48,898 nt of DNA from a virus. Its lineage: Duplodnaviria > Caudoviricetes. Every line of letters begins with the position of its first letter. The stretch's first letter is position 1. The position numbers and the translations under genes were made by a program. This document shows positions 811 to 47,488 of this stretch, piece after piece. The notes beneath the pieces were generated by a model, which did no database searches, was not told where the DNA came from, and saw nothing but the letters and a program-made list of their open reading frames with translations. The DNA is taken from positions 1 to 48,898 of the IMG/VR virus record IMGVR_UViG_3300048999_000260; one strand, 5' to 3'.

Positions 811-840
811 CGTCTACATCGGACAGAGGAAGAAGAGACC

Positions 841-1068
841 ATGTCGTGGTACATCGTGACCGTGGAGGCGATTCCGATGGCGGGCGTCGCGCTGACCATG
901 CCGGGCTGCGTCTTCAGCGAGGAGTGCAGCAACCAGGGCGGCGCCGAGCACAGCGTGATCCTCGGGCACGACGAGCTCGAGGCGATCCGACGGTCATCGA
1001 TCCGCATCATGCGCACCGAGCGGATCCCGGACCACGTCGTTGCCGCCATCCGGAAGTCCGCCGGCTGA
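841..1068 (+). CDS. hypothetical protein (75 aa)
   Basis: ATG 841 after AGAGGA RBS; GC3-rich codons. Confidence 0.7.
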   Translation: MSWYIVTVEAIPMAGVALTMPGCVFSEECSNQGGAEHSVILGHDELEAIRRSSIRIMRTERIPDHVVAAIRKSAG

Positions 1069-1273
1069 CGCGCGCTACGCTGGCGCGGCAGCGGCCCCCG
1101 GCATAGATGACCGGGAGCTGGATCGCATCCTCCAGCACCACCTACAACTACATACTGACGGTTCTTCAGAACCGATCCGCGGGCCGGGCCACCCCTGTCG
1201 TCCGGTCCGCGGATCGACACATCCCACCGCTAAGTCCGGGTACGTTAAGTCCCGACGAGGTAAGGAACGTCAC

Positions 1274-2056
1274 ATGCCCCACGAGCACGTCAACTCATCG
1301 ATCGTCGACGCGACGCTTGACCCGATCACCGTTGATCCGGATCACCCGAACGGCATCATGCGGGTCCCCGAGCGCGTCACCGTGATCTGGAACCGGCCGG
1401 CCGCGCCGCACGCGTACGCCGATCCTCAGGACGGTTACGTGCAGATCGTCTCGGAGCAGCTGGGCAGCGAGGCGCGGTTCCCGTCGCCGAAGATGATCGA
1501 GATCGATTCGGCCGCGCCGCACGCGTTCAACGCCCTGGATGCCGAGGACGAGGCGAAATACGTCGGTTCCGGGCCGACTGAGGTGCACTGCCGGTGGTGC
1601 GGCCAGACCGCTGCCGACGGTCCTCACGGGATCATCGATCCGACGAAGCCGCATCTCTTTCGCGCTGAGCCTGACAGTACAAACCACCGTAGTCCCGGCT
1701 GTGTCCACTGTGGACAGACGTACGGGGCTGGCCCGCACGTCTCTGCCACCGCGGAACGTAACGTCGCGCTCGCAGGGATGCTATCTGATCCGGAACGAGC
1801 ACCGCATCGCTTCAAGGCCGTCGCCACCTCGGATCCGGACTCGGACCAGGACATCTGCGAGCACTGTCAGCTGACGCGCCGTGAGGGCAATCACGACGGT
1901 TACAAGACCGGACCGCACCGGATTTTCACCGAGGGTGAGCCGACGTGGTCCGAACCGTGCACCGGCCTCGCGGTCACGTTGACCCGGGCTGATCTGAACC
2001 GCCTCATCAAGATGTTGCGCCGCGCGCGTGACGACGCCTACGGAGCCGACGCATGA
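1274..2056 (+). CDS. hypothetical phage protein with three PHxF..CxxC..H putative zinc-binding repeats
   Basis: ATG after AAGGA; motifs CRWC, CVHC, CEHC; C-terminus LNRLIKMLRRARDDAYGADA typical of actinophage small proteins. Confidence 0.75.
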   Translation: MPHEHVNSSIVDATLDPITVDPDHPNGIMRVPERVTVIWNRPAAPHAYADPQDGYVQIVSEQLGSEARFPSPKMIEIDSAAPHAFNALDAEDEAKYVGSGPTEVHCRWCGQTAADGPHGIIDPTKPHLFRAEPDSTNHRSPGCVHCGQTYGAGPHVSATAERNVALAGMLSDPERAPHRFKAVATSDPDSDQDICEHCQLTRREGNHDGYKTGPHRIFTEGEPTWSEPCTGLAVTLTRADLNRLIKMLRRARDDAYGADA

Positions 2057-2226
2057 GCACCGTGATTCCGATGATCTTAACCAACGTCGGTACATTCATC
2101 TGCGGGATGCTGTTTGCGACGGCGCGAGCCAGGCGTCGGCGAACGCGCGACATCTTGATGGGCTTCGGCGCCGGCCGGAACGTCGCCGGTCACCGCGGAC
2201 CGTCCGATGTGGACGGTGCCGCGTGA
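2053..2226 (+). CDS. small membrane protein (57 aa)
   Basis: ATGA overlap with previous stop; MSTVIPMILTNVGTFICGMLFA followed by basic run. Confidence 0.55.
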   Translation: MSTVIPMILTNVGTFICGMLFATARARRRRTRDILMGFGAGRNVAGHRGPSDVDGAA

Positions 2227-2654
2227 CCGGCCATCGGCGCGGGCCGGACTACGCGGAACCATCGAGCGTCATCGTGGCCGACTACCTGCTCGAGCGATTG
2301 CGCGAGCAGCCGGGTGCGAGCGACGTCATCGAGATGATCAACGGCTTCCCGCTCCGCGCGACCGATCTCCGGGTCGTCGTCGACGCGTTAGTGTCGTGCC
2401 GACGCGACGTGAAGACCGCGCATCAGACGCGCTTCCACGAGCGACGGCTGACACACACGCTACTGCCGTCCGATCGGCTGGCGATCGCCTACCGCACCGC
2501 CGAGTGCAACTGCGGTGTGCGCGGCAACGTCGTTGACCTGGCCGCGGCCGAGGTGTGGCACGCGATGCACGAGCGCTGGCCGACCGAGTCCGCGGCTGAG
2601 CTGGCGACGCGCATGCGATCGTCGCTGCGCGACCCGGATACCATCGGGAGTTGA
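2223..2654 (+). CDS. hypothetical protein
   Basis: GTGA overlap start inside ORF 2028..2654. Confidence 0.65.
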   Translation: MTGHRRGPDYAEPSSVIVADYLLERLREQPGASDVIEMINGFPLRATDLRVVVDALVSCRRDVKTAHQTRFHERRLTHTLLPSDRLAIAYRTAECNCGVRGNVVDLAAAEVWHAMHERWPTESAAELATRMRSSLRDPDTIGS

Positions 2655-2655
2655 G

Positions 2656-2952
2656 ATGTGTCGCACGCCGGAGATCGTTACCACCACGCGATCGCGTCCG
2701 TTCACGTCCGAACCCGCGACGTCGGGGCACTGCGTGAACTGCGGCCGCGCGGCGCACCGGTGTCCGGCGTGCGACACGTTTCGCTGTGACAGCGACATCC
2801 ACTTCTCGATCATGGGACAGGTTCCACTGGCGTGCGTCGTCTGTCAGCCAGCCGGGATCCGGAGTTGGGTGGGGCCGAGCAGCTCGATGCCCGGCATGGC
2901 CGAGATCGGCTGGGTTCCAGCCGGCCAACCGACGCCGTGGGAGCTGCCGTGA
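2656..2952 (+). CDS. Cys-rich (zinc finger-like) hypothetical protein
   Basis: ATG after GGGAG; CVNC, CPAC, CVVC. Confidence 0.6.
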   Translation: MCRTPEIVTTTRSRPFTSEPATSGHCVNCGRAAHRCPACDTFRCDSDIHFSIMGQVPLACVVCQPAGIRSWVGPSSSMPGMAEIGWVPAGQPTPWELP

Positions 2953-3050
2953 CCGGCCAACAGCTCGCGCTGCTGCTCGTCCTACTGCTCGTGGCCGCGC
3001 TGGTGTTCCTCTTCTCCAAGTGGTGGCTTCACGTGGTGGCGGTCACGTGA
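2949..3050 (+). CDS. single-TM peptide (33 aa)
   Basis: GTGA overlap; LALLLVLLLVAALVFLF. Confidence 0.5.
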   Translation: MTGQQLALLLVLLLVAALVFLFSKWWLHVVAVT

Positions 3051-3112
3051 CTTAGCTCTACCGATCCGGCGTACGCTGACCGCATCCGGACCAACTGACC
3101 AGAGGAAAGAGC

Positions 3113-3202
3113 ATGACACGACGCACGTGGTTCATCGCGGTTTGGATCGCCATTGGCCTCGCCGCGGTCTTCGCCTACTGGTCGGCGACGGTGACGCCGT
3201 GA
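3113..3202 (+). CDS. single-TM peptide (29 aa)
   Basis: AGAGGA RBS; MTRRTWFIAVWIAIGLAAVFAYWSATVTP. Confidence 0.55.
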   Translation: MTRRTWFIAVWIAIGLAAVFAYWSATVTP

Positions 3203-3423
3203 ACCCACGTCCGTCCGTCTGCCGGATGGTTCACCTCATCGACCGGTACTCGCCGCACGACTGCCTCGCCGCGATCGTCACGCGCGTGCCGAACGGCGCC
3301 GTTTGGCTGGTCGATCTCGCGGTGTTTAACCGTGGCATCGACTTCATGAACGGTGTCTCGTTCGAGGAGTCCGGTACGATACCGGGCACGTGGCACTGGC
3401 CCGAGCGGGTCGAGGAGTCGTGA
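3199..3423 (+). CDS. conserved small phage protein
   Basis: PSVCRMVH...AAIVTRV...GTWHWPERV pattern common in phage hypotheticals. Confidence 0.7.
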   Translation: MNPRPSVCRMVHLIDRYSPHDCLAAIVTRVPNGAVWLVDLAVFNRGIDFMNGVSFEESGTIPGTWHWPERVEES

Positions 3424-3424
3424 C

Positions 3425-3676
3425 GTGGGACTCGCGGACGAACGCGCGCAGCTCGCGCAGCTCGCTGACGATCGCACGCTGGTCGAACGCGTCACGGGCG
3501 TACAGGCCGACATCGAGTCGACCCGCGCGCAGGCGGTTAACCTGCTCGGAGAGGGACATCCGGGCGCAGCGGTGGTCAACGGCGCCGGAACCAACGCGAT
3601 CAACGCGTTGGCCGGCGCGTACGACGCGATCGAGCGGTTCCTGCAAGAGATCTTGAACGCGGCCGGAGGAACATGA
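3425..3676 (+). CDS. helical hypothetical protein
   Basis: GTG after GAGGAG; amphipathic helix-turn-helix pattern. Confidence 0.65.
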   Translation: MGLADERAQLAQLADDRTLVERVTGVQADIESTRAQAVNLLGEGHPGAAVVNGAGTNAINALAGAYDAIERFLQEILNAAGGT

Positions 3677-4032
3677 TGACCAATCCTGACGACGTCAGCG
3701 AAGACGAGAAGCGCCGCCGAGGCGAACGACTGCTCGATGCGATCTTCGCGCCGAGTGGTGTAGAGGAGACGACGCACGAGAGCGACTGCTTCGCCTGTGA
3801 TCTGGCGTCGGAGATCGCTGGTTCGATCGCGGCGTACGTCCACTTTGGAACGCGCGTCCGCGTCAGCCGAGCGGTGGAGACCGACGGCTGGCAGGAGCCG
3901 GCCACGCTGGACTACGACGAGGCGGTTCCCGGCGACACGCGCCTGGACATGGCGTATCGGATCGCCGCGCACGAGCTGCACAAGAAGCTGCCCGGTCACG
4001 CGCCGAACAGCGAACCGCGGAAGACCTCATGA
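3673..4032 (+). CDS. hypothetical protein
   Basis: ORF track; GGAGGA RBS; ATGA overlap. Confidence 0.7.
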   Translation: MMTNPDDVSEDEKRRRGERLLDAIFAPSGVEETTHESDCFACDLASEIAGSIAAYVHFGTRVRVSRAVETDGWQEPATLDYDEAVPGDTRLDMAYRIAAHELHKKLPGHAPNSEPRKTS

Positions 4033-4352
4033 CGGAAGATCAGCTACCGGACCGCGTGCGCGCGGCCGAGGAGAACCGCGAGTTCCGTCAGCTGCTCGAG
4101 CAGTCATCGATCGGCCAGCCGCCCAAGGGCTTCGAGAACGAACCGGCCATCGGCAGCGGCATGTGTGAGACGTGTCGATCGGACTGGTGCGGCGAGATCG
4201 ACTGCCTGACGGCGGGCTGCGCGTGCACGTGTATCGCGGACAAGAGCGCGCTTCACCGTGACATGCTCGAGATCTACGACAACGACAACCCGGAAAGTCT
4301 GTACGATGTCGCGTGTTCGCTGTACGGCAGGGGCTGGCGCCGTGAAGGCTAA
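4029..4352 (+). CDS. Cys-rich hypothetical protein
   Basis: ORF track; CETC..C..C..CACTC. Confidence 0.65.
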   Translation: MTEDQLPDRVRAAEENREFRQLLEQSSIGQPPKGFENEPAIGSGMCETCRSDWCGEIDCLTAGCACTCIADKSALHRDMLEIYDNDNPESLYDVACSLYGRGWRREG

Positions 4353-4614
4353 CGTGTACACGCTCGACGTCTCGTGGGGGCGCGGCCAGTCCGCCGACTG
4401 GATGCGCACCGACATGCGCTTCGGCGACGGTCGGCGACACGTCGGCACGACGCACACGCTGGCAAGCACCCATGACATGTCCGTCGAGGAGGTCGCCGAG
4501 GTCATGGTCGAGTCCGTGTCGATCGCGATCGACGCCCTCGCATTGATGCTGCCGGAGCTTGAGTACGTGAATCACGAGGAGTTCGAGAAGCTGGTCGGAG
4601 AGAAGGAAACATGA
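4342..4614 (+). CDS. hypothetical protein
   Basis: GTG start in ORF 4258..4614; coupled to neighbours. Confidence 0.6.
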   Translation: MKANVYTLDVSWGRGQSADWMRTDMRFGDGRRHVGTTHTLASTHDMSVEEVAEVMVESVSIAIDALALMLPELEYVNHEEFEKLVGEKET

Positions 4615-5039
4615 GCGTGATCAACCCGCATCGGTGTTGTCCGATCTGCGGTGATCGCAACTTCACCGAGGTCGCGCGGATCGACGCCGATCCGGCGATC
4701 GGCCAGGACGAGGACGAGGCGGTGTACCGCTGCGTCGCGGTGGGACACGAGTTCACGTCGAACGACCACGTGTGGGACGTTCACGAGGACGACGACTATC
4801 CACATGCGACGAACGACACGCCGGCTACGCCGCTGGCCGCGGCCGGTGTGACGCGTCACTCGGCCGATCCGTTTCGAACGGCCGACGGTGACATCCACCC
4901 GCGGCTCCGGGCCGCGATCGACGAGCGCGTCTTTGAGATCATGCACGCGCGTGACGCGCTGGCGATACGCGGCGTGCCGTTCGGACCGGCCGACATCCTC
5001 GCCGAGCTACGCAAGCGCGGAGGTGCGCATGCCGATTGA
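4611..5039 (+). CDS. hypothetical protein with N-terminal zinc ribbon
   Basis: AAGGA RBS; CPICG...CxxxGH. Confidence 0.7.
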   Translation: MSVINPHRCCPICGDRNFTEVARIDADPAIGQDEDEAVYRCVAVGHEFTSNDHVWDVHEDDDYPHATNDTPATPLAAAGVTRHSADPFRTADGDIHPRLRAAIDERVFEIMHARDALAIRGVPFGPADILAELRKRGGAHAD

Positions 5040-5196
5040 GTCGGCGCCATCGGGTCCGATGTGGACGGACATGCAGCGTCTCGAGCTCTCGCGGTACATC
5101 CAGACCGCGGCCGAGAAGCAGCTCGACATCCGACTAACCACCCACCGCGCGTCCGTGCTCGCCGTCGCGCTGCTCAACGGGGGGTGGCACCGGTGA
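5029..5196 (+). CDS. hypothetical protein (55 aa)
   Basis: GGAGGTG RBS before ATG 5029. Confidence 0.6.
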   Translation: MPIESAPSGPMWTDMQRLELSRYIQTAAEKQLDIRLTTHRASVLAVALLNGGWHR

Positions 5197-5447
5197 TCGC
5201 GAGGAAGATTCCGGTGAACTACGACATGATCCGTAAGGCGGAGATCGGTGAACGCGCGCTCGTGAAGATCCGCGAGGTTGAGATCGATCCGGATGCCAGC
5301 GCGGGCTACTTCATGATCATGCCCAGCGCGACGATCGTGGCGACGACCGAGCGTAGGGTCAACATCGACTGGGACGTTGACGGCAACATCATCGGCATCG
5401 AGCTGCTGGACATCCTGGCACCGCCGCGAAACGAGGAGACGACATGA
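5193..5447 (+). CDS. DUF2283-like protein
   Basis: DPDASAGYF...VNIDWDVDGNIIGIELLD motif. Confidence 0.7.
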   Translation: MIARKIPVNYDMIRKAEIGERALVKIREVEIDPDASAGYFMIMPSATIVATTERRVNIDWDVDGNIIGIELLDILAPPRNEETT

Positions 5448-5659
5448 TCGAGTCGGCGTTCCACCGCGACGATCACGTGCGGTACACCGGCCCTGACGAG
5501 GCCGCGGCGCCGGTCGGCGACGGCATCGACGGCACGATCGTCGAGGTCGCACAGTTTAATGACCAGCCGGTCTACGTGATCGTGTTCCCGGACCGCATGG
5601 ACCCGGTCATGATCACCGGTGACGACGAAGCGTCACGGTGGTTGACCCTTATCGAGTAA
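5444..5659 (+). CDS. small beta-barrel (SH3/KOW-like) hypothetical protein
   Basis: GAGGAG RBS; F..D.VRY...GTIVEV...Y.I.F pattern. Confidence 0.65.
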   Translation: MIESAFHRDDHVRYTGPDEAAAPVGDGIDGTIVEVAQFNDQPVYVIVFPDRMDPVMITGDDEASRWLTLIE

Positions 5660-5668
5660 GGAAAGTAG

Positions 5669-5968
5669 ATGACCGAGGAAAAGAAGATCCGCTGGTACAA
5701 CCAGAACGTCTCGCTTGGCACGGTTGTGAGCTTGACGTTGTACACGACCGCGGGACTGATCCTGCTCGCTACGATGACCGCATCGTACGGACTCGTCAGC
5801 TGGTGGCTCGTGCTTCTCGCCGCGGTCGTACCGCTGGCGTGGCTCGCGGCCCTGTTCGGAACGCTGCTGTACATCCAGTTCCGATGGGCACGACGGAATC
5901 GTACGCGGTTCACCGTGAAACTCAAGATCTTCTCCTGGACCACCGAACGGACGTGGGACTTCCGATGA
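5669..5968 (+). CDS. membrane protein (2 TM)
   Basis: AAGGA RBS; two hydrophobic segments. Confidence 0.7.
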   Translation: MTEEKKIRWYNQNVSLGTVVSLTLYTTAGLILLATMTASYGLVSWWLVLLAAVVPLAWLAALFGTLLYIQFRWARRNRTRFTVKLKIFSWTTERTWDFR

Positions 5969-6495
5969 CCGATGACAAGCCGCTGCTCGGTGATCCGGAG
6001 AGCAACGCGGAGTTCGACGCCGGCGTGGACGCGATCCTCGCGAAGGCCGGCGTGAAGCCGTTGTCCAATCCGGACCGCGTGAAGACGCCGTCCACGGAGG
6101 AAAGCAAGGCCAGCCACGAGGCCGCGCAGCGCGCGACCGGCTCGCCGACCGGACGCACGAGCGCGTACCTACCGTCGTATCCGGGACGCAAGGATTACGA
6201 CACCGAGATCATGTCGCAGATGATCACGAGGTCGACGTTCCCGTGGATCGGCGTGCTTGGCAGCGCGCAGGCCGCCGGTCACGAGGTGTCCGTCCATCTG
6301 CGACAGGACCCGGTTCCCGGGTTTCGTGGCAGGATCGTCAACGAGCCGCCGCTGACGGACCTCGATGAGCTTGCCGCGGCATCGGTCAAGACCGTCAAGC
6401 TGGAGCGCGACACCGGCAGCGCGCCGCGGCGCGAGGTCACGACGGTGCTCATCGCCGATATCGTTGCGATCACGGTAATCGAGAAGAAGTCATGA
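5965..6495 (+). CDS. hypothetical protein
   Basis: ATGA overlap start in ORF 5638..6495. Confidence 0.65.
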   Translation: MTDDKPLLGDPESNAEFDAGVDAILAKAGVKPLSNPDRVKTPSTEESKASHEAAQRATGSPTGRTSAYLPSYPGRKDYDTEIMSQMITRSTFPWIGVLGSAQAAGHEVSVHLRQDPVPGFRGRIVNEPPLTDLDELAAASVKTVKLERDTGSAPRREVTTVLIADIVAITVIEKKS

Positions 6496-6671
6496 CGCTT
6501 GGTGAGCTCCTCGAGCGGATCGGTCGCATGCGATGGGAGGGCGAGCATAACACGCCGATCTACGTGACCGATCCGGCGAACCGCTGGCACCGCACCGAGG
6601 TCACTGACATCTTCCGCGACAGCGACGGTCACATCGTCCTCGAGGTGCCCGAGGTGATCCATGAACCGTGA
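6492..6671 (+). CDS. hypothetical protein (59 aa)
   Basis: MTLGELLERIG...GHIVLEVPEVIHEP, translated by hand; ATGA overlap. Confidence 0.6.
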   Translation: MTLGELLERIGRMRWEGEHNTPIYVTDPANRWHRTEVTDIFRDSDGHIVLEVPEVIHEP

Positions 6672-6915
6672 GCTCAGCGACGAGCCGCCGCCCGGACCGG
6701 AGCGCCGGCGCAGCCACCGTCCACATCGGACACCGCGTCGAGGCGTCCGCGTCGGCACCGCGGCGTGGTACCTTCTGATCACCGCGTTCATCGCGTTCAT
6801 GCTGCTGATGCTGCTTACCGACATCTGGCCGTTCGGGCACGAGATGATCATTCAACACACGTGGAAGCCGGTATGTGACTACGGCCACGGACGACTGGAG
6901 TTCTGTAAGCCATGA
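6661..6915 (+). CDS. membrane protein
   Basis: GAGGTG RBS; one TM segment. Confidence 0.6.
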   Translation: MNRELSDEPPPGPERRRSHRPHRTPRRGVRVGTAAWYLLITAFIAFMLLMLLTDIWPFGHEMIIQHTWKPVCDYGHGRLEFCKP

Positions 6916-7400
6916 CCGCACCGCGTGCCGACACGGGCACCTGCGAGAACTGCGAACGTCCGAATCGCGCGCGGTTTCCGGACCCTCTCACCGACATGCG
7001 CATCTGCCTCGACTGCTGCGCGGAGTCGGCCACCCGGATCCAAGACACAGCCGGCCGGTTCATCTGCCCGCGTCGGATCGAGATTCCGTCGACGTTTCGG
7101 CTCGCGCCAGCCGACACGTGGCAGGACCGCTTCGGCAAGCTGTACTGCGCGCACTGCGGTTCCTTACACCCCATCGCTTTCATGCGCGCCGTCGCTAACG
7201 GCATCGAGCTCGGACCCACCGACAAGTCGTACAAGATCTACGTTGGTGCCAGCGGCGGTGATAAGTTCTACTTTCAACACCTGTCCGTCGACGACCGGAT
7301 GACCTTCATTCAGCTGCTCAACGCGAAGGTGCCGCACTTCGGCTCGCCCGGTTACCTCTACACGCGACCGTTCTTCATCGCACCCTTAGGAAAAGACTGA
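6912..7400 (+). CDS. hypothetical protein with CxxC motifs
   Basis: ORF track; CENC, CLDC, CAHCGSLHP. Confidence 0.7.
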   Translation: MTAPRADTGTCENCERPNRARFPDPLTDMRICLDCCAESATRIQDTAGRFICPRRIEIPSTFRLAPADTWQDRFGKLYCAHCGSLHPIAFMRAVANGIELGPTDKSYKIYVGASGGDKFYFQHLSVDDRMTFIQLLNAKVPHFGSPGYLYTRPFFIAPLGKD

Positions 7401-7906
7401 TGACCGAAGAAAAACCGCCCGTCACCCCGCACGAACCGCCGTGGTGGGACGGCATCGCGTTCCGGCCGGCCGAGCACCACATGATCACGGCCGCGACCGG
7501 TGCGGCCGCGGCACGCACCGCGTTCCGGGACAAGACCGTGCCACCGTGGCGCAACCCCACGCGTGAGATGATCGACACCGCGCGCGCGACCACCGAGTAC
7601 GTCGGTCCGTCGTCACCCACGAGTCTCATCGTGTACATCACGATCGGCAACTCGGACGACAAGCTCCAACAGCACGACTGGGCGAACCTCATTCGTGAGC
7701 TCAAGGCGACGCTGACCGACTTCAGCGGTCGCACGCACATCGAGGCGTACTCCGCGCCGGACGCGACGTGGCAGAACATGTGCATCTGCAAGGAGGTCGA
7801 ACGCACCGACCTGGACCGGCTTCGCGCCGCGCTGCGCGCGCTGCGCACGACGTACCACCAAGACAGCGTCGCGCTCGTCACGGCGGGACGAACGGAGCTC
7901 GTATGA
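7400..7906 (+). CDS. hypothetical protein
   Basis: ORF track; TGATG coupling; VYITIGNSDDKL.Q..W motif. Confidence 0.7.
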   Translation: MTEEKPPVTPHEPPWWDGIAFRPAEHHMITAATGAAAARTAFRDKTVPPWRNPTREMIDTARATTEYVGPSSPTSLIVYITIGNSDDKLQQHDWANLIRELKATLTDFSGRTHIEAYSAPDATWQNMCICKEVERTDLDRLRAALRALRTTYHQDSVALVTAGRTELV

Positions 7907-8199
7907 CCGACTGGCTTGACGAGTTCATCGACACGCTCGATGACATCGTCGACGCGATCTTCTCCGGCTCAGACCGGATCTACGACACACGCGTCACCCG
8001 GAACCGCGACAAGCCTCATCGCTGTCCGCGCTGCCACGCCGTGGCATTCCGTGGGTGTAAGGCTTTGCACGCGTGGACCGTGATCAGCTGTCACCGCTGC
8101 GAGGTGTGGTGGCGCTACGGTCCGCGCTGGACGACGAAGCTCGGCAACCGCTGGCACGCCGTTCGCCAGGCCCGGTGGAAGCGTCATTTGAAGCCTTAA
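7903..8199 (+). CDS. zinc ribbon hypothetical protein
   Basis: ATG 7903 after GGAG; CPRC, CHRC. Confidence 0.6.
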   Translation: MTDWLDEFIDTLDDIVDAIFSGSDRIYDTRVTRNRDKPHRCPRCHAVAFRGCKALHAWTVISCHRCEVWWRYGPRWTTKLGNRWHAVRQARWKRHLKP

Positions 8200-8245
8200 G
8201 TTGGTCGCGTCGTACGATCGGACCGAGGAAACGGAAGGAACAAAG

Positions 8246-8803
8246 ATGAGGTTTAAGACGGAGAGGCTGCGGGTCGCGGTCGAGTCCGCGATCACGCAGC
8301 ATGAGATCGAGCATAACCGCGCAAACAACAGCCGGCGAAGGCAGCGCGCCGACGCCGAGCAGCAATGGGTCGAGACGTACAACGCCAAGTGGGAGCAGGC
8401 GATCCCGCGCATCCGCGCCGCGATTCGCGCCGGTCGACCGATCACCGTCAAGGAGGTCGCGACCCGGAACGATCACTATCGCGACACCGTGGCACTGTTC
8501 GCGGACAACAACCGCTCGGGTGACGAACCTCACGTGATCCCCCACGACCTGATGGTCATGCGCAACGCGCTCCGTCTGGTTGAGGACGACGAGGTCACCA
8601 CGACGTCACTGCGCACGCTCGGAGTCAGCTCGACCATGCTGCGCACCGTGTGCGACCTCGCGCGCGAGGACATCGCGAAGCAGCAACGTGAGATGAACGC
8701 GCAGACCACCGCGAAGCCGAAGCCGGTCAAGACTAAGCCGCGCGCGCGAAAGCCGATCACCGCCGCGATCGCGGTGACCACCGTCCCGCAGGATCGATCG
8801 TGA
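8246..8803 (+). CDS. basic helical hypothetical protein
   Basis: ATG after AAGGA; TACGAT -10-like box at 8213. Confidence 0.7.
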   Translation: MRFKTERLRVAVESAITQHEIEHNRANNSRRRQRADAEQQWVETYNAKWEQAIPRIRAAIRAGRPITVKEVATRNDHYRDTVALFADNNRSGDEPHVIPHDLMVMRNALRLVEDDEVTTTSLRTLGVSSTMLRTVCDLAREDIAKQQREMNAQTTAKPKPVKTKPRARKPITAAIAVTTVPQDRS

Positions 8804-9060
8804 CCATCCAGAACCACAGGAACGAGGGTGTCGTCCCGTCGGCCGGTGACGTCCTCGCGTGGATGGGCGCTCACGTGATCGTCAACCGCATCGGTCGGAC
8901 GCGGACGTGGGCCGACGTCAAGGTGCGTCAGCTCAGCGGTGCGATGTGGAGCAAGCGCATCCGGTTACCGCTGCCGGCCGACGCGCGGCCGTGCGAGCAT
9001 CCGACCGACGAGCACTGCGAGTGCGCGCGGATTCCAGACACCGGCTTCGAGGAGACGTAA
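8800..9060 (+). CDS. hypothetical protein
   Basis: ORF track; coupled. Confidence 0.6.
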   Translation: MTIQNHRNEGVVPSAGDVLAWMGAHVIVNRIGRTRTWADVKVRQLSGAMWSKRIRLPLPADARPCEHPTDEHCECARIPDTGFEET

Positions 9061-9269
9061 TGGTGCGAAACTACGTACCCCGCAAGGTATCACCGCGGCG
9101 ATCACTGCGCATCTCGGTCTGGGTCTCCGACGTGGAGAAGACGACCGTCGAGGAGGCGGCCGCGATCGAAGGCGTTAGCGTGGCGCAGTTCATCCGTGAC
9201 GTGACCTTGGGTGCGGCCAGCGCGACGCTCGTAGAGGAGACCGAGCGCCTCCGAGATGACGTCGCATGA
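9060..9269 (+). CDS. ribbon-helix-helix DNA-binding protein (DUF1778/MobC-like)
   Basis: RISVWVSDVEKTTVEEAAAIEGVSVAQFIR; TAATG coupling. Confidence 0.7.
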   Translation: MVRNYVPRKVSPRRSLRISVWVSDVEKTTVEEAAAIEGVSVAQFIRDVTLGAASATLVEETERLRDDVA

Positions 9270-9415
9270 TCATCTGGATCATCACCGTGTCGCTGTTCGT
9301 GATCGTCGGCGGTGCGCTGGTTATCGTGGAGATCTGCGACGATCGAGCGTGGAGGCGGTACAACCGGCAGCGTGACGAGCGCATCAGGCGGTTTATCCGT
9401 GACATTCGGTACTAG
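9266..9415 (+). CDS. small membrane protein (49 aa)
   Basis: MIIWIITVSLFVIVGGALVIV..., ATGA overlap. Confidence 0.55.
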   Translation: MIIWIITVSLFVIVGGALVIVEICDDRAWRRYNRQRDERIRRFIRDIRY

Positions 9416-9435
9416 CCGTTGTGACATAAGGAAAA

Positions 9436-9954
9436 GTGATGACTGAGGACAAGAAGAGGTTCGACACGTCCGAGTTGCCTCCGTTTCCGTGGCAGCTTGT
9501 TGACGGCACGGTCTACGCCGCGGACGGGCAGATCCTGCTCGTCGTCATGGCACCGGTCGGCGGCGAGGTCGTCGACGCGATGAACATGCTCGCCGAGGAC
9601 GGCTGGTTCACGCCGATCTCCGAGCACATGCAAGAGGCGTATAACGCGTACGTCCGCGCCGACACGCGCAACCAGACCGCACTCACGCAGATCGAGAAGT
9701 ACCGCAAGGACGGCGTGATCGAGACCGGCTCGCCGGGGATCGACCTGCAGACGCCCGCCGAGATGCTCGACGTGCTTCACGACGTGCTGTCCGGCGGCGG
9801 CTCGATGACGTACTTTCCCTGCCAGTATGCGGTGATTCCGAACATCGGTGACGAGGGGATGTGCGTCGCGCACGCCACCGCGGAGTTCGACGGCAAGCGA
9901 TATTGCCAGCCGCACGCCAAGGCGCTCGAGGAGAAGTGGGGTGCGTCGTTGTGA
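9436..9954 (+). CDS. hypothetical protein
   Basis: AAGGA RBS; ORF track. Confidence 0.7.
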   Translation: MMTEDKKRFDTSELPPFPWQLVDGTVYAADGQILLVVMAPVGGEVVDAMNMLAEDGWFTPISEHMQEAYNAYVRADTRNQTALTQIEKYRKDGVIETGSPGIDLQTPAEMLDVLHDVLSGGGSMTYFPCQYAVIPNIGDEGMCVAHATAEFDGKRYCQPHAKALEEKWGASL

Positions 9955-11826: not shown

Positions 11827-11867
11827 ATTGAGACCGCCCTACCGATCGCGCGGGTCGGGATGGCACC

Positions 11868-38096: not shown

Positions 38097-39917
38097 GTGG
38101 CCGTAGTACTCGATGCTTCCACACCAGGGTTTGTCACCGGCACCTCCAATCCGGTTACGAGCGCACCGATCATCGCGCCAGCCGGAAGCATGTTCTTCGC
38201 GATTTGCATCGCGGACGAGTCAAACACCTTCGTCATCAGCAATCCGTCCGGCAGCGCGCTGACGTGGACGTCTATCGGTGCGTCGGTCTCCGGTGCTGGC
38301 TTTACAAACATGCAGGTTTACTGGGCCTACGATCCGGTCGGCGGTAGCCGTACCGTTCGATCGACCAGAACCGGCTCGTTTACGGCGCATGGCCTTAAGG
38401 TTTTGGTGTTTACCGGAACCGAGACCACGTTCACCGGTGCCAACGGATCTGCGAAGCTCGACACCGTCAACATCGTTACGACCGCTGCCAACTCGTGGGT
38501 TTGGGCCGGTCACGGCGACGAGAATGCGGCGCTCGATACCGCGGCCACGAACTGCACGTTCAACGATGGACCGGCGGTGTTCGGCACCGGTGGCATCGCC
38601 GGTGGTATCATCAAGCGCAACGCCATTACGGCGACGTCCGGCACGAGCGTCACGATCGGTACGTCGGCTGGCACGCTGCCAGCTGTCTTGGCTTTCGAGG
38701 TCAAGGAGGGCGGCGGTGCCGCGGCGCCGTCCGGTAACGCGCTGGCCGGTCGATGGCCTAACGCGATGGCACCGGGCTTTACGCGTCGCAACGTCCAGAC
38801 CAACTTCAACACGCCGTTCCAGCTGCTCGGTTCGCAGGACGTCGCGCAGACCTACGTCAAGTCCACATCGGACCCGGTCGGCATCACCGACGCGACGGCA
38901 CTATCTCGTATCACCGTGCAGACCGATCCGGTCGGGGTCACCGACTCGGTCAAGGTCAGCCGCACGACGGCGGTCACGGATCCGGTCGGCATCACGGACA
39001 CGCGTGCCTACAACGACGGCGAGAACTACACGGATCCCGTCGGGATCACCGACGCCGCGACTCGTGTCGTAGCCGCGGTCCGCTCGCCGGCCGATCCGGT
39101 CAACGTCACGGATACGCGGACCGTCGCGCGCGGTAAGTCGCAGACGGACGCGGTCGGCATCACCGACAGCGCGACCGGTGTGATCAGCCTGACGAAGACC
39201 GTCACCGACGCGATCGGGATCACCGACGCGCAGACGAAGTCGCGCGCTGAGTCCTCCGGAGAGGCCGTCGGGCTGACCGATTCGGTATCGGTTACCAAGA
39301 CGGTGGTGCGCATCGTCTCCGATCCGGTGGGCGTACTGGATACCCGCGCGTACAACGACGGTGAGAACTACACCGATCCGATCGCGATCACGGACACGCA
39401 AACGGTCGCGCGCGGCACGTCGCGTAGCGATCCGGTGGGTATCACCGACGCGCGCACCGTCGCGGCCGGCCGGACCCGGACGGACCCGGTCAACGTCACC
39501 GACGCGCGCAACGTCGCGCGGATCAAGCCGGTCACCGATCCGATCGGCGTGACCGACAGTGCGACGGCGGCACGGTCGATCCACGTAACCATCACCGATT
39601 CCGTTGGTCTCACCGACTTCATCCCGACCGGGATCGTCCGTGACATCTGCGTGTCGTTGACCGGCGGACCGCACGTCCGGACACACGCGCTTACCGGTCC
39701 GCGGGTCGTCCCGCACACCGTCGTCGGTCCGCGCGTCGATCGCGCCGTGACCGGACCGGGTGCCGTGTCGGTCAAGATACAATCCTTGAAGGCACAGGGA
39801 CGTACGATGACCGGACCGCGCGTGCGGTCACACGCCGTCAGCGGTCCGCGGCTCCGTCCGCTGATCACCTCCGAGGGGATCCAGCCACGAACCGTAACCG
39901 GCCCAACGAATTGCTGA
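38097..39917 (+). CDS. repeat-rich putative fibre/minor virion protein
   Basis: About 14 xDPVGITD repeats plus C-terminal TGPRV repeats. Confidence 0.75.
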   Translation: MAVVLDASTPGFVTGTSNPVTSAPIIAPAGSMFFAICIADESNTFVISNPSGSALTWTSIGASVSGAGFTNMQVYWAYDPVGGSRTVRSTRTGSFTAHGLKVLVFTGTETTFTGANGSAKLDTVNIVTTAANSWVWAGHGDENAALDTAATNCTFNDGPAVFGTGGIAGGIIKRNAITATSGTSVTIGTSAGTLPAVLAFEVKEGGGAAAPSGNALAGRWPNAMAPGFTRRNVQTNFNTPFQLLGSQDVAQTYVKSTSDPVGITDATALSRITVQTDPVGVTDSVKVSRTTAVTDPVGITDTRAYNDGENYTDPVGITDAATRVVAAVRSPADPVNVTDTRTVARGKSQTDAVGITDSATGVISLTKTVTDAIGITDAQTKSRAESSGEAVGLTDSVSVTKTVVRIVSDPVGVLDTRAYNDGENYTDPIAITDTQTVARGTSRSDPVGITDARTVAAGRTRTDPVNVTDARNVARIKPVTDPIGVTDSATAARSIHVTITDSVGLTDFIPTGIVRDICVSLTGGPHVRTHALTGPRVVPHTVVGPRVDRAVTGPGAVSVKIQSLKAQGRTMTGPRVRSHAVSGPRLRPLITSEGIQPRTVTGPTNC

Positions 39918-42306: not shown

Positions 42307-42786
42307 ATGACGACCGTTGAAACCGCGGATGGACCGATCATCGAAACCACGCCGGCCGCATCGGCCGCACCGGTACCGGTCATCGACACGGCACCGTCCA
42401 CACTGGACACGATCGAGCCGACGGTGGTCACCGAGAACGGCGAGGAGATCTTCGACTTCACGACCGGTCGGAAGAACTTCAAGTTCAAGATCGACGATGA
42501 CGTCTTCGAGGCGATCAGCGACCTGCCCGCGTTGACCGCCATGGAATTCGGCCAGTACGCCAACACCCTCGATACGAGCAGCGATCTCGACGCGCAGGCC
42601 AAGGCGGTCGAGACCATGTTCCGACTGGTCTTGACCACCGCGTCGGCGGAGGTGTTCATCCGTCGACTGTCCGATGTGAACAACCCGATCGGTGCGCGGC
42701 CGATGAACAGCATCATGATGTGGCTCATGGAGAAGTACGGGTTCCGCCCTACCGCGCCGTCCGGGGTCTCCTCGGATGGCTCTTAA
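42307..42786 (+). CDS. tail assembly chaperone
   Basis: AAAGGA RBS; FKIDDDVF, WLMEKYGFRPT; upstream of tape measure. Confidence 0.8.
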   Translation: MTTVETADGPIIETTPAASAAPVPVIDTAPSTLDTIEPTVVTENGEEIFDFTTGRKNFKFKIDDDVFEAISDLPALTAMEFGQYANTLDTSSDLDAQAKAVETMFRLVLTTASAEVFIRRLSDVNNPIGARPMNSIMMWLMEKYGFRPTAPSGVSSDGS

Positions 42787-43109: not shown

Positions 43110-46100
43110 CCGACCCGATCGACGTTGCATATGTGGAGATCCGTGCCGACGGAAGTAAGTTCGGTCCGGACGTCGCGGGCACCGTCGATCGGGAGATGGC
43201 CAAGTCCGGCAAGCAGATCAAGGACTCGATCGTCAAGCCGGTCGACGAGGCGGCCAAGCAGACCGGGTCGATCTTCTCCGGACTGGGCCAGTCCATCTCG
43301 AACGGGCTGCGTCCCGGAATCACGCAGGTCAACAACTTTCGCGCCGGCTTCAACGACTCCCGGGCCGCGGCATCGGCGTTCACCGGCACCATGGGAACGC
43401 TCGGTGGCGTAACACGGACCGCGCTCAACCCGTCGATCACCGCGCTTCAGAACTTCCACTCCGGTTTCGTCTCAACGGACGCGGCGGCCTCGGCGTTCAC
43501 CGGCCGGATGGGCACGCTCGGCGGTGTCGTTCGTAGCACGCTGAATCCGGCGATCACGAGCGTTCAGAACTTCCACTCCGGACTGGTGTCAAGTGACGCC
43601 GCGGCGTCCGTGTTCTCCGGGCGCATGGGCACGCTCGGTGGCGTGGTGACGTCGACGTTCCGCGTTGGACAGTCGGCCGTGACCGGGTTCGGCAACGTGG
43701 TCGGCAGCACGTTCCGCGGCGCGCAGACGGTAGCCAAGGACTTCGGCAACATCGGATCCCAGGTCGCCTCGAAGATCGGCAGCGCGTTCGAGACGTCGGC
43801 CCGCAACATGGAGTCACGCTTCACCGGCGCGATGACACGCATGAAGGGTGCGGCACTCGGCATCGGTGGGGCGCTCGGTGTCGGTGGGATCGGCGCGCTG
43901 ATCGGCGCTGGCATCAGCCGAATCTCAGACATCGAGCAGACGACCAAGTCACTGCAGGTCATGACAGGTTCCGCCAGTAAGGCGAAGGACGTCATGAACG
44001 AGCTGCTGACGTTCGCGAAGACCACGCCATTTTCGTTCCCTGACGTCTCCGAGATCGGTCGAAACCTCGTCGCGTTCGGTGTCGACACAAGCAAGGTCGT
44101 ACCGATCCTGAAGTCGTTGGGCGACGCGGCGTCTGCGTCCGGCCAGGGCACGCAGGCGATGCAATCGCTGGGCAACGCGATCGGTTCGGTCGCGATCGCC
44201 GGCAGCATCGGCGGTCAGGATCTCCAGTCGTTCCAGGCGGTCGGTGTTCCGGCACTGAAGATCTTGGCGAACACCGCCGGTGTGTCCGCGGACGAGATGG
44301 CCAAGCGCATCAGTAAGGGGACCGTTGACTCAAACTTTGCCATCGATTCACTGGTAAAGGGAATTGAGAACGGAACGAACGGACTTGCCGGCCAGACCGC
44401 CAAGATGGGCGGGATCATGGCGTCCCAAAAGGACACCATCGCCGGCACGATGGACTCCTTCAAGTCGTCGGTCACATCGACGATGGCGACGTTGCTCACG
44501 CCCGCAATTCCGCTGATGCGCCAGGGCGTCGGTGCGATCGGCAACGAGTTCAAGAAGTTGCCCGCCCTGATCACGACGATCAAGGACCGGCTCCAGTCAC
44601 TCGGGTTCATCGACGCGATCAAGAACATGTTCGCCGGTATCGGCAACATCATCTCCGCCATCTGGCCGGTACTCCAGCGGTTCGGCCAGGTGTTCGCCGT
44701 CGTGTTCGGCGCTGGCACGCTCGTCATCCTGCGCGCGCTCGGCGCGGCGTTCCAGTGGATCGGCGATCGCATCCGTCAGTTCCTCCCGGTGCTGCAACCG
44801 ATCGCCACGGTTCTCGGTGCGGTGTGGGGTGCCACCATGCTGCTGCGCACCGCGCTGATGCTCGGCGGTGCGGCGATGCTGGTGTGGAAGGGCATCATGG
44901 TCGCGTTCGGACCGATCATGAAGATCTTCACCGCGCTTCAGTGGGCGCTGAACGTCGCGATGAACGCGAACCCGATCAGCTTGATCATCATCGCGATCGT
45001 CGCGCTGGTCGCCGCGTTCGTGATCCTCTGGAACAAGTCGGCCGGTTTCCGTCAGTTCTGGATCGGACTGTGGCAGACCATCTCTGACTTCTTCATCGGC
45101 GTGTGGCACGGCATGCAGTCGGTCTTTACGACGGTGATCGACGCGTTGAAGAGCGCGTGGAATGCCGCGTGGAAGTTCATCAGCGACATCATCTCCGCGG
45201 TGTGGAACGGCTTCCTCAAGCCGATCTTTGACGCGATCACCGCCGCCGTGCAGGCGGTCGGTGCGGCCGCGCAGTGGTTGTGGCTGAACATCCTCCAGCC
45301 AGTCTTCAACTTCATCGGTGCCGCGGCCGTGATCATGGGTAAGATCATGCTCGGTCTCGTGCTGATTCCGCTCGTCGCGTTCTGGCAGTTCGTTCTCGCA
45401 CCGACCGCGTTGTGGCTGTGGCACAACGTGATCGAACCCGTGTTTAACGGGATCGGGGCGGTCGTTCAGTTCACGATCAACAACATCATTATCCCGATTC
45501 AGAACATGTTGGTCGCGTCGTGGAAGATCTTGGAGGCCGCGGCGCTCTGGTTCTGGCACAACGTCATCGAGCGTGTGTGGAACGGCATCGGGGCGATCAT
45601 CCAGTTCACGATCAACAACGTGATCATGCCGGTAGCCAACTTCCTCAAGGGAGGGATCGATCTTCTCGGTGCCACGTTCGTGTACCTGTGGCAGAACTAC
45701 GTGGTACCGGCGTGGAACGCGATCGGCAACGCCATCTCGTTCGGGTGGCACAACATCATCGAACCGATCTTCCACTTCATCAAGGGCGGCGTCGACTTCC
45801 TCGGTGCGACGTTCAACTACCTGTGGCACAACTACGTTGAGCCGATCTGGAACGGCATCGGCAACGCGATCAGGTTCGTATGGGACAAGGTCATCTCGCC
45901 GGCGTTCGAGGCGATCAAGAACGGTGTCAGCAGGGTCGGTGACTTCTTCAGCTCCGCTAAGGACACCGTGGAGCGGATCTGGGGCCAGCTCGGCGACATC
46001 GCGATGAAGCCGATCCGCTTCGTGGTCAACACGGTCCTGGACGACGGCCTGATTGCCGGCTGGAACAAGGTCGTGGATTTCCTGCACCTCGGCTTCCTTC

Positions 46101-47488
46101 ACATCCCGCCGATTCCGCGGCTGGCAACCGGCGGCATCATCCCCGGCTACACGCCGGGGCGTGACACGCACATGATCGCGGTCGGTGGCGGCGAGGCCGT
46201 GATGCGTCCGGAGTGGACGCGCGCGGCCGGTGCGGGCTACGTCCACGGCGCGAACCAAGCGGCTCGCTCCGGAGGAGTGGGCGGTGCGCAGTCGTTCATC
46301 CAGAGGAACGGTCTCCCGGGCTACAGCGTCGGTCAAGGTTTCGCTAACGGTGGCGTGGTTGGTTGGATCGGCAACGCACTGAGCTCGGTCGGTGACTTCG
46401 TCGGTGGTGCGTTCAACGGTCTGATGAACTTCGGCGGACAGGTACTCGACTTTATCTCAAGTCCCGTCGACAGCATGGAGAAGCTGCTCAACGGGATCAT
46501 CAGTGGTATCGGCATGAACGTCGGTGACGTCGGCAAGTTTGCGGATCTCGCCTTGCAAGCACCGAAGAACATGGTCGGTGGCATGGTCCAGAAGATCAAG
46601 GACTGGTGGAACAGCTTCATGGCGCAGTCCGGCGCGAACGTCGGTGGCGCCGGCGTGCAACGCTGGGCACCGTTGGTACTTCAGGCTTTGGCTATGCTCG
46701 GTCAACCGGCGAGCCTGTTGCCGAACGTCCTCCGCCGGATGAACCAGGAGTCCGGCGGCAACCCGAACGCCATCAACAACTGGGACTCGAACGCGGCCGC
46801 CGGCCACCCGTCGCAGGGCCTGATGCAGACGATCCCCGGTACGTTCGCCGCGTACGCCGGACCGTTCGCGTCGCTCGGGATCTTGAATCCGCTGGCCAAC
46901 ATCTACGCCGGCTTGAACTACGCGATTCATCGATACCCGTCGCTTCAGTACGCGATGGACAAGCCGGGCGGCTACGACGGTGGCGGCTGGCTGATGCCCG
47001 GCCAGTTCGGGTACAACGGAACGTCCACGCCGGAGCCGGTCTTCAACAGCGCGCAGTGGTCGGCTATCACGTCGAGCTTGGATGTCAAGAACGCGGCGTC
47101 CGAGTTGTTGAACCGGATCGCGAGCGGTGGCTCGATCTTCGAAGATCTGTCCTTCTACGGGCAGTCGCGTAACGGCGCGGCGAACAACGATCTTCTCACG
47201 AACCTGTTTGGTGCGACGTATGGCCAACAGGACTTCGGTGCGAACGGCTACAACACCGCGGTCCTCACGCAGTTTCTCAGCAGCGTCGTTACGTCGACGA
47301 CGCGCCAGACGTCCGCGACCACCGCGGTGGCGACCGCGACGCAGCGGACCACCGACACGCTGGCCGACAAGCTCGATGCGATCATCGCCCTGCTGCGGCA
47401 GCGTCAGACCTTACGTGCGGATCTGGTCCTGGACGGCAAGGTGCTCGCGCAGTGGTTCCAACAGCTTGAGACGATGGGGGGTGTGTAA
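43106..47488 (+). CDS. tape measure protein with C-terminal lytic transglycosylase domain
   Basis: 1460 aa; FAKTTPF tape-measure domain, ANPI, Trp-periodic repeats, QESGGNPNAINNWDSNA..GHPSQGLMQTI. Confidence 0.95.
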   Translation: MTDPIDVAYVEIRADGSKFGPDVAGTVDREMAKSGKQIKDSIVKPVDEAAKQTGSIFSGLGQSISNGLRPGITQVNNFRAGFNDSRAAASAFTGTMGTLGGVTRTALNPSITALQNFHSGFVSTDAAASAFTGRMGTLGGVVRSTLNPAITSVQNFHSGLVSSDAAASVFSGRMGTLGGVVTSTFRVGQSAVTGFGNVVGSTFRGAQTVAKDFGNIGSQVASKIGSAFETSARNMESRFTGAMTRMKGAALGIGGALGVGGIGALIGAGISRISDIEQTTKSLQVMTGSASKAKDVMNELLTFAKTTPFSFPDVSEIGRNLVAFGVDTSKVVPILKSLGDAASASGQGTQAMQSLGNAIGSVAIAGSIGGQDLQSFQAVGVPALKILANTAGVSADEMAKRISKGTVDSNFAIDSLVKGIENGTNGLAGQTAKMGGIMASQKDTIAGTMDSFKSSVTSTMATLLTPAIPLMRQGVGAIGNEFKKLPALITTIKDRLQSLGFIDAIKNMFAGIGNIISAIWPVLQRFGQVFAVVFGAGTLVILRALGAAFQWIGDRIRQFLPVLQPIATVLGAVWGATMLLRTALMLGGAAMLVWKGIMVAFGPIMKIFTALQWALNVAMNANPISLIIIAIVALVAAFVILWNKSAGFRQFWIGLWQTISDFFIGVWHGMQSVFTTVIDALKSAWNAAWKFISDIISAVWNGFLKPIFDAITAAVQAVGAAAQWLWLNILQPVFNFIGAAAVIMGKIMLGLVLIPLVAFWQFVLAPTALWLWHNVIEPVFNGIGAVVQFTINNIIIPIQNMLVASWKILEAAALWFWHNVIERVWNGIGAIIQFTINNVIMPVANFLKGGIDLLGATFVYLWQNYVVPAWNAIGNAISFGWHNIIEPIFHFIKGGVDFLGATFNYLWHNYVEPIWNGIGNAIRFVWDKVISPAFEAIKNGVSRVGDFFSSAKDTVERIWGQLGDIAMKPIRFVVNTVLDDGLIAGWNKVVDFLHLGFLHIPPIPRLATGGIIPGYTPGRDTHMIAVGGGEAVMRPEWTRAAGAGYVHGANQAARSGGVGGAQSFIQRNGLPGYSVGQGFANGGVVGWIGNALSSVGDFVGGAFNGLMNFGGQVLDFISSPVDSMEKLLNGIISGIGMNVGDVGKFADLALQAPKNMVGGMVQKIKDWWNSFMAQSGANVGGAGVQRWAPLVLQALAMLGQPASLLPNVLRRMNQESGGNPNAINNWDSNAAAGHPSQGLMQTIPGTFAAYAGPFASLGILNPLANIYAGLNYAIHRYPSLQYAMDKPGGYDGGGWLMPGQFGYNGTSTPEPVFNSAQWSAITSSLDVKNAASELLNRIASGGSIFEDLSFYGQSRNGAANNDLLTNLFGATYGQQDFGANGYNTAVLTQFLSSVVTSTTRQTSATTAVATATQRTTDTLADKLDAIIALLRQRQTLRADLVLDGKVLAQWFQQLETMGGV
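43334..43660 (+). repeat. 3 x 117-nt (39-aa) repeat in tape measure N-terminus
   Basis: NFxxGxxxxxAAASxFxGxMGTLGGV units starting at 43334, 43451, 43568. Confidence 0.9.

Follow-up and report, generated by a model that had tools for sequence, protein, structure and literature searches.

A 13-bp interrupted dyad that recurs throughout a 48,898-bp stretch of phage DNA from soil metagenome runs (IMG/VR record IMGVR_UViG_3300048999_000260; the whole stretch is called the window in this paper) is a chromosome-wide signature of one actinomycete branch and not private to the phage. The consensus GTCCAC-W-(G/T)(T/C)-GGAC was common to hosts and phages. The base preferences were equal, position by position, in 680 kb of host and 149 kb of phage DNA, with the perfect dyad GTCCACAGTGGAC as the preferred form of the hosts and GTCCACATCGGAC as that of the phages. 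As a word iterated across a host clade it is apparently undescribed, since literal and topic searches of the open-access literature found no description of the motif, although subscription papers or supplements could hold one. We tentatively propose, at somewhat less than even confidence, that the dyad is the site of a putative host dimeric nucleoid-type protein and that phages accumulate it since DNA coated by this protein would be treated as self and protected or retained. An original prediction, made from the letters of the window, had listed many of the sites and proposed a dimeric protein acting across the whole phage genome.

Enrichment of the Dyad in the Window

The window has a GC content of 64%. 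GTCC-N5-GGAC was found 29 times, versus 0–7 times for each of the other spacer lengths from 0 to 14, and ranked first among 4096 gapped 4+4 palindromes (z 16.8). The 13-bp near-palindrome thereby occurs once every 1–2 kb, mostly inside genes. Markov models of orders 1–5 predicted 1.8–2.4 sites. Using 2000 synonymous-codon shuffles as null for the window, the exact word (8 copies, 5 on the + and 3 on the − strand) reached a mean of 0.26 and a maximum of 2, GTCCRN3YGGAC (25 observed) a mean of 2.3 and a maximum of 8, and GTCC-N5-GGAC a mean of 3.9 and a maximum of 11. Where the encoded peptide permits the motif, it was used in 27 of 64 coding contexts, compared to 3.7 predicted from codon usage. 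The enrichment is real, and the motif is written in at synonymous positions. All eight exact, five one-mismatch and eleven consensus sites listed in the original prediction were recovered, however, nine further GTCC-N5-GGAC sites had been overlooked. Its chance estimate of 0.5 consensus matches was too low (about 2–4), but the excess held, and persisted under both the Markov and the codon-aware null. Near-matches were likewise in excess, as the five one-mismatch copies show. The spacing of the sites was no more regular than random (CV, coefficient of variation, 0.81; P 0.18), and a regular spacing, supported by none of five phage records, was discarded.

The Dyad in Actinomycete Chromosomes

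One genome of the Micromonosporaceae contained 14 exact copies (control 0). In a sample of 61 genomes of this family a match was found in 51, at least 10 exact copies in 29 and at most three in 26, with a maximum of 122, while the reversed-word control yielded 0–1. At the level of the order, 57 of 251 genomes carried at least 10 copies of GTCCACAKYGGAC (maximum 456 in 8.6 Mb; control 0–2 per strand), by which an earlier restriction to the Micromonosporaceae was overturned. The 29 motif-rich Micromonosporaceae and the 57 rich genomes of the order each include one genome flagged as unpublished (G065 and G547, respectively). In 300 other Actinomycetota genomes from across the phylum exact copies stayed at chance level (0–2). 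RpoB trees (FastTree; 30 and 35 rows selected for high or low counts, with short internal branches) placed the rich genomes in four clades, with several poor lineages interspersed. Two of these clades were the basal Micromonosporaceae and a sister lineage (G564); the third was sister to Mycobacterium/Rhodococcus, and the fourth included Jatrophihabitans. Judged by position and genome size, the last two appear to be Pseudonocardiaceae-like and Frankia-like. Named Micromonospora, Actinoplanes, Streptomyces, Nonomuraea, Microbispora and Jatrophihabitans records were poor, as was a basal clade of six large genomes. Judged from these trees, the pattern suggests an old trait that was lost several times.

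Within the chromosomes the sites were dispersed. In G020, 30 of 30 consecutive exact sites were without common flanks beyond the 13 bases and lay mostly in unrelated genes, with SDVD, STSD and VHIGR as recurring reading frames. REP (repetitive extragenic palindromic) and CGTC-tagged repeats are 20–40 bp long, mainly extragenic and share stem and tail, a description that these sites do not fit; a survey of such elements names no Actinobacteria among those given (PMC3733652). In three single-contig chromosomes (G469, G453 and G675 with 34, 46 and 98 exact sites) the sites lay all round the chromosome in both orientations and were neither few nor clustered at oriC as expected for ParB-binding parS; canonical parS was found separate from the motif, at the origin, in G453, G020 and G050. 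The partition reading offered in the original prediction was therefore abandoned on account of this genome-wide distribution. Its alternative of a macrodomain mark fared no better, since in the two chromosomes with dnaA mapped (G469 and G453) sites were found close to the point opposite dnaA as well as at a distance from it, without clustering at or exclusion from the terminus, unlike MatP-bound matS and SlmA-bound SBS. For matS, a 13-bp chromosome-organising dyad, restriction to ter and avoidance by enterobacterial prophages are described (PMC3603311), whereas the actinomycete dyad is genome-wide and enriched in some phages. In the same two chromosomes 48 of 80 sites were on the leading strand (P 0.09), hence the replichore polarity of KOPS or Chi was not seen.

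Pairs of sites within 30 bp were observed in 19 of 40 rich genomes (control 0). Gaps of 1 bp (17 of 59 pairs) and 8 bp (7 of 59) recurred, the latter being also the gap of the pair conserved in the phage (see below). Many of the 1-bp-gap pairs lie inside genes and are not duplicates, and a 14-bp period was in excess; the 8-bp-gap host pairs are partly accounted for by in-frame duplication. About a third of 39 tandem loci were intergenic, several of them between convergent genes, and no orthologous neighbour gene was common to tandem or triple sites. Triple arrays in 8 of 60 rich genomes were motif-based minisatellites with periods of 14, 18, 21, 25 and 30 bp. Examples with the motif in the repeat unit were seen at L746 1500–1576, L737 1500–1610, L744 1500–1625 and L740 1500–1640; according to the translations, those of L746 and L737 are in-frame insertions into an UppP-like and a DUF5682-like gene, respectively.

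Such arrays would be expected if a host enzyme made the sites, i.e., if a modification, nick or repair pathway converted near-matches and duplicated them locally, with fast-evolving phage DNA equilibrating sooner. The independent origin of the minisatellites, some of them in-frame, the random spacing and the turnover of sites in the phages described below agree with this explanation. Sites of the SfiI/BglI type have the same 4-5-4 geometry. Nevertheless, we regard it as improbable: near-matches are in excess instead of being depleted, a base preference that extends over 13 bp, centre included, exceeds what would be expected of a methylase or repair signal, and the deficit in core genes would not be predicted, recently arrived prophages aside. 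A precedent for it is HIP1, a highly iterated cyanobacterial palindrome without known function that is largely intragenic and for which a chromosome-level role was proposed (PMC5861425). Like HIP1, the actinomycete word is over-represented clade-wide, largely intragenic and free of an insertion footprint; it differs as an interrupted 13-bp dyad of lower density with a strong excess in phages. The word "phage" is absent from the main text of the HIP1 paper (PMC5861425).

The Dyad in Phages

The window is, judged by its genes, a partial siphovirus genome whose capsid module is of the hexamer/pentamer type found in cluster-B-like actinophages. PHROG matches comprised 776 portal, 777 major head, 779, 792 tail tube and 783 adaptor, besides tape measure and Dit. 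Megablast of window positions 20000–32000 revealed no close named phage, and the best tblastn matches of the capsid protein to named phages had 27–35% identity. Uncultured relatives with capsid identities of up to 85% are found on contigs of about 93–106 kb, and because of this size about half of the phage genome is probably missing from the window.

The nearest relatives compared (L001/L201 and L202, 70% identity to the window) were counted as one lineage because they are near-identical to each other at aligned sites. They carried 4 distinct sites in about 9 kb versus about 0.1 expected. Of eight aligned window sites one was kept, and new sites occurred elsewhere, hence the conservation of coding sites in related phages that the original prediction called for was not observed. 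The only positionally conserved element was the tandem pair at 31865 and 31886 between the capsid genes, which has the exact consensus in L001/L201. In three other runs the pair was found as exact consensus (X9), unchanged (X4) or with the first site broken by a 2-nt deletion (X5), the second site being unchanged in all three. Density is thus conserved within the close clade, position mostly not. At larger distance the motif was not in excess: 157 viral/metagenome loci at 40–59% capsid identity (2.13 Mb) contained 158 N5 sites versus 41–164 at other spacings, and 59 genome loci of distant capsid relatives were mostly near the expected count. Capsid relatives at 48–55% identity were also found in Streptomyces assemblies; three of them (L284, L285, L288) are on contigs of 92–96 kb, about one phage genome long, and may be extrachromosomal phage-plasmids. 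Other gapped palindromes, CGAA-N10-TTCG or TCGA-N11-TCGA, were in excess in the distant relatives L008, L033 and L068 (6–10 copies versus 0.3–1.2 expected).

Apart from the window and its nearest relatives, rich phages were chosen by a motif scan of viral contigs. A record with an unrelated terminase, G001, has 8 sites in 15.4 kb, and G484, G485 and G486 have 26 in 24.3 kb, 16 in 41.8 kb and 8 in 18.6 kb, respectively (0.2–3.1 expected across the four). Their packaging and capsid genes differ from those of the window, and no DNA-binding gene was common to the window and these four in the parts sequenced. Since the GC content of G486 is 44%, base composition is not the cause of the richness. 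Discounting the selecting site, 9 of 160 further motif-selected viral loci were enriched at P ≤ 0.001. Five records with 3–5 sites each (G003, G004, G005, G487, G488) were left out of the rich set, and L556 was dropped as a pentapeptide-repeat artefact. A restriction to lytic phages was dropped as well, because G484 has an integrase and the provirus G002 reaches 280 sites per Mb. The Actinoplanes phage phiAsp2 was at background (5 versus 5.1 expected in 50 of 58.6 kb); one named genome of its host genus was motif-poor. In the phage G004, with 46% GC, two exact copies (G004:C1:6212 and 7551; L154/L155, L109) lie 1339 bp apart within a longer direct repeat and are probably unrelated to the dyad system.

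These data bear on the possibility that a phage-encoded regulator or ParB-type clamp binds its own operators in the manner of stoperators, cluster O repeats or KorB, the match to the host being secondary. The window encodes RHH (ribbon-helix-helix), AraC-type and Lsr2-domain proteins, about half of the genome probably lies outside it, and the nearest clade has the motif together with a conserved capsid-gene pair while the 157 more distant loci do not. We consider this highly improbable, as host chromosomes from four clades contain the same word in up to 122 exact copies, and phages whose terminase, portal and capsid genes are unrelated have it too. Neither an integrase nor a repressor was seen within the 49 kb of this partial genome. 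Stoperators of cluster A are asymmetric 13-mers co-oriented with transcription; here, the word is a dyad in both orientations, and all called genes are on the + strand. The repeats of cluster O mycobacteriophages, 17-bp dyads with an invariant 7-3-7 structure and 14 of 34 copies intergenic, are described as conserved in position and absent from the host (PMC4351075). The window resembles them in having about 30 dyads with A/T-rich centre throughout an actinophage genome in both orientations, but its sites are 4-5-4, mostly intragenic, common to host chromosomes and turn over, although the comparison of positions is imperfect, cluster O genomes being mutually closer. The binders suggested in the original prediction, i.e., the RHH protein encoded at 9060, the AraC-type and Lsr2-like proteins or a phage repressor or ParB, were consequently given up: the motif is a host-lineage signature and occurs in phages without a common DNA-binding gene. 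Its idea of a dimeric protein acting across the whole genome is still in line with the dyad, its A/T-rich centre and the 14- and 21-bp tandems. Because hosts and unrelated phages have the same word, the binder, or whatever else causes the motif, is very probably host-encoded.

A Gradient From Core Genes to Phages

Host densities were determined from samples of 60–400 kb per genome. Strong sites per Mb increased from 20 at rpoB loci and 31 in rpoB/ori regions to 55 in random host chunks and 95 in the gene quartile with the lowest GC3 (GC content at third codon positions), whereas motif-selected phages had 168–269 (65 in G002) and the window 450. For the N5 form, 186–200 sites per Mb were found in the densest hosts sampled, 593 in the window and 1069 in G484. 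The density of the window was 3–8 times that of the densest hosts sampled. The original prediction would have been refuted by a motif equally common in the host and not conserved at synonymous positions; it is indeed common there, however, at one third to one eighth of the phage density.

We propose that a host dimeric nucleoid-type protein would bind the dyad across the chromosome. Dimer binding is suggested by the 4-5-4 dyad with its A/T-rich centre, one strong half-site and the preferred 14-bp pairing; a dyad of such geometry is helix-turn-helix-like. Phage DNA with many sites would be coated by this protein and taken as self, and coated incoming DNA might survive or be retained better after cell entry. 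Because positions change between relatives, sites are randomly spaced and arrays grow, more sites at any position would be better. DNA moving between cells would pass such a filter more often than core genes, and a gradient core < accessory < phage is what an entry filter would build, for which reason this self-mark is preferred. A precedent for an actinomycete nucleoid protein with sequence-defined sites is Gbn (SCO1839), which binds GATCWT at thousands of sites and is reported from Streptomyces, Frankia and Micromonospora (PMC9239103). The 13-bp dyad lacks GATC, and named Streptomyces, Micromonospora and Actinoplanes genomes are poor in it. For a host site on a phage, the parS sites and 0A boxes of phi29 would be the analogue: five parS sites plus Spo0A boxes are described, by which host chromosome proteins are exploited (PMC2731898). 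Both phages would carry sites for host chromosome proteins (here a putative binder), but phi29 has five parS for a known protein compared to about 30 sites in 49 kb here, and the host sites of the dyad are genome-wide instead of ori-clustered.

The same gradient can be explained by a host protein that acts as silencer or roadblock of accessory DNA, with temperate or plasmid-like phages relying on its sites to remain quiet or to be carried along through sporulation. Highly expressed core regions have few sites and atypical genes more, two window sites lie on start codons, and the conserved pair precedes the pentamer gene. Furthermore, serine integrase and HTH_17 genes are present in G484, the virus record with the highest site density, the capsid relatives in Streptomyces assemblies include the three on 92–96 kb contigs, and Spo0A boxes and parS of phi29 provide a precedent (PMC2731898). 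By analogy such a role is conceivable, yet we consider it unlikely, as there was no intergenic excess in hosts (64 versus 54 per Mb), most window sites are mid-gene and turn over, five resident prophage regions were not enriched and the tandem pairs had no common orthologous neighbour.

A further explanation is a drive of the DNA-uptake type, in which a biased uptake or transfer machine prefers the word, so that it accumulates without benefit per site in hosts and co-evolving phages. In its distribution the word resembles USS (uptake signal sequences) and DUS (DNA uptake sequences) or HIP1. Like USS/DUS it is short, confined to a lineage and repeated in both orientations across coding DNA; family-level restriction with lineage variants, favoured frames, turnover and gene-end inverted pairs are further similarities, and Pasteurellaceae phages are described as accumulating USS (PMC6776037). 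The genes comEA–comEC are present. Still, this drive appears distinctly unlikely. USS are denser in the core and phages saturate near host level (PMC6776037), while here the core loci are poorest (rpoB 20, random 55 and low-GC3 95 per Mb, highly expressed genes being a narrow core sample), and phages exceed hosts 3–8-fold, which resident prophage regions do not. The actinomycete word is a dyad, whereas USS/DUS are asymmetric. A link to competence genes was not seen: comEC was found in 43 of 44 genomes whatever their motif count, in rich ones as in poor ones, and no differences in comEA/comEC were seen.

We are aware of several facts that weigh against the self-mark proposed here. The rich phages picked by motif scan stand at the extreme of a distribution. 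In rich hosts, five prophage regions did not exceed the host level (128 N5 sites per Mb versus 150, from 35 sites in 273 kb; 37 strong sites per Mb with flanks), and the Saccharomonospora phage PIS 136, whose host genus was not counted for the motif, was at background (3 versus 2.9 in 94.9 kb); many phages therefore do without the motif. A denser host outside the sample would remove the phage excess, the low-GC3 excess may partly be composition, and motif-centred minisatellites, some of them in-frame, could stem from mutation acting locally instead of from selection for binding. That the phage of the window infects a motif-rich host is inferred from the motif itself and is hence circular. The one motif-independent hint to the host is the DUF7873 gene-plus-RNA layout described below, which is common to Micromonosporaceae including motif-poor ones, and CRISPR spacers of 201 genomes gave no match to window positions 1–20000 among the matches listed. 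Finally, the binding protein was not found among the genes screened, i.e., ParB, comEA/comEC, ori-region genes and neighbours of tandem or triple sites. No gene was specific to the ori region of rich genomes. An extra or orphan ParB, as for Noc-NBS or KorB-OB systems, was rejected as binder, since a search with ParB_N, which covers paralogues with this N-terminal domain, gave one match each in the rich G020, G026 and G453 and the poor G050, and two in G044; three of four rich genomes had no extra copy.

A more far-reaching form of the self-mark is positive self-recognition in a large actinomycete branch, in which a conserved protein binds GTCCAC-W-KY-GGAC, under-marked DNA is destroyed, silenced or lost, and phages evade via synonymous sites. 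We regard it as doubtful. If true, it would turn restriction-site avoidance round, and would account for the motif throughout the chromosomes as well as for its excess in unrelated phages. Independent of the mechanism, the word joins the rare class of USS/DUS and HIP1, here in antibiotic-producing actinomycetes. A single oligonucleotide can serve as bait for the protein, with a sharp presence/absence pattern across hundreds of genomes for confirmation. The excess in unrelated phages indicates that the word matters for DNA entering the cell and bears on anti-phage defence and on the poor transformability of these genera. Moreover, the motif offers a host-prediction marker for uncultured actinophages, and other dyad lattices regarded as phage-private are worth checking against host chromosomes.

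Sites and Neighbouring Genes in the Window

The nine sites additional to the original prediction are marked as new in the following. In the left part of the window, a one-mismatch site (812–824, +) lies intergenic, 16 bp before ORF 841, followed by a copy of GTCCACAGTGGAC, the commonest host variant (1703–1715, −), exact sites at 2202–2214 (−), 5054–5066 (−) and 6719–6731 (+) and a new consensus site at 6063–6075, all within coding sequences. A new GTCC-N5-GGAC site with GC-rich centre (8120–8132) may be background. Position 10061–10073, a consensus site, is within the gene of the AraC-type helix-turn-helix protein. As described in the original prediction, the exact site at 10855–10867 (−) and the one-mismatch site at 11190–11202 (−) cover the ATGs at 10860 and 11195, and its accounts of the site at 13639 and of the capsid-gene tandem were likewise correct. 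Consensus sites follow at 11389–11401 (coding) and 12729–12741 (new). The exact site at 13639–13651 (+) is intergenic, with the DUF7873 gene on one side and a tRNA-like RNA block on the other. Further exact sites lie in the Lsr2-domain/peptidoglycan-binding gene (17933–17945, +) and in a glycosyltransferase gene (21613–21625, +).

In the head module, GTCCACAGTGGAC is found at the 5' end of the portal gene (23322–23334, +). A new GTCC-N5-GGAC site in the same gene (24805–24817) and a consensus site in the MuF gene (25663–25675) are absent at the aligned positions in L202. The LigT-like gene contains consensus sites at 27327–27339 and 27690–27702 (new). Neither the new GTCC-N5-GGAC site in the protease/scaffold gene (28559–28571) nor the consensus site at 28697–28709 is kept in L201/L202, where the consensus site of the capsid hexamer gene (30658–30670) has one mismatch. 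The tandem pair (31865–31877 and 31886–31898, i.e., 31865–31898, +) has a 21-bp period and separates the capsid hexamer and pentamer genes; two consensus sites in the pentamer gene (32523–32535, new, and 32690–32702) are not kept in L201. The tail region carries an intergenic one-mismatch site (35417–35429, −), an exact site in a minor tail-type gene (38861–38873, +), a consensus site in the tail assembly region (42396–42408) and a one-mismatch site in a coding sequence (42669–42681, −). In the tape measure gene a new GTCC-N5-GGAC site (44422–44434) and a consensus site (46206–46218) were found, and a new GTCC-N5-GGAC site in the distal tail gene (48074–48086) may be background.

Several neighbouring genes deserve mention. 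The region 12855–14187 comprises the DUF7873 gene, tandem tRNA-like halves (T-arm then D-arm, at about 13850–13912 and 13995–14050) and a tRNA, the latter being the sole Rfam match in the window. The same layout was present in 10 of 12 Micromonosporaceae loci examined, the protein being 48–53% identical, and the phage seems to have acquired a conserved protein along with tRNA-mimic or Y-like RNAs. Just upstream of the terminase gene, a protein with an Acb2/Tad1 hairpin domain (Pfam PF24729, 31 bits) is encoded at 14966–15202 and predicted to act in anti-defence as a signal sponge. At 17682–18284 an Lsr2 DNA-binding domain is fused to a peptidoglycan-binding domain. Between terminase and portal, the methyltransferase, C-methyltransferase, GDP-mannose dehydratase and glycosyltransferase genes at 18769–22893 suggest a methylated-sugar decoration of virion or DNA. 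In the head module (25043–27876) a MuF minor head protein fused to an ADP-ribosyltransferase domain is followed by an HNH nuclease and the LigT-like phosphoesterase. On the host side, a nonribosomal peptide synthetase cluster (L472; G067:C1:402000–421999), selected for being a cluster, contained 17 sites in 20 kb, 13 of them in one giant open reading frame.

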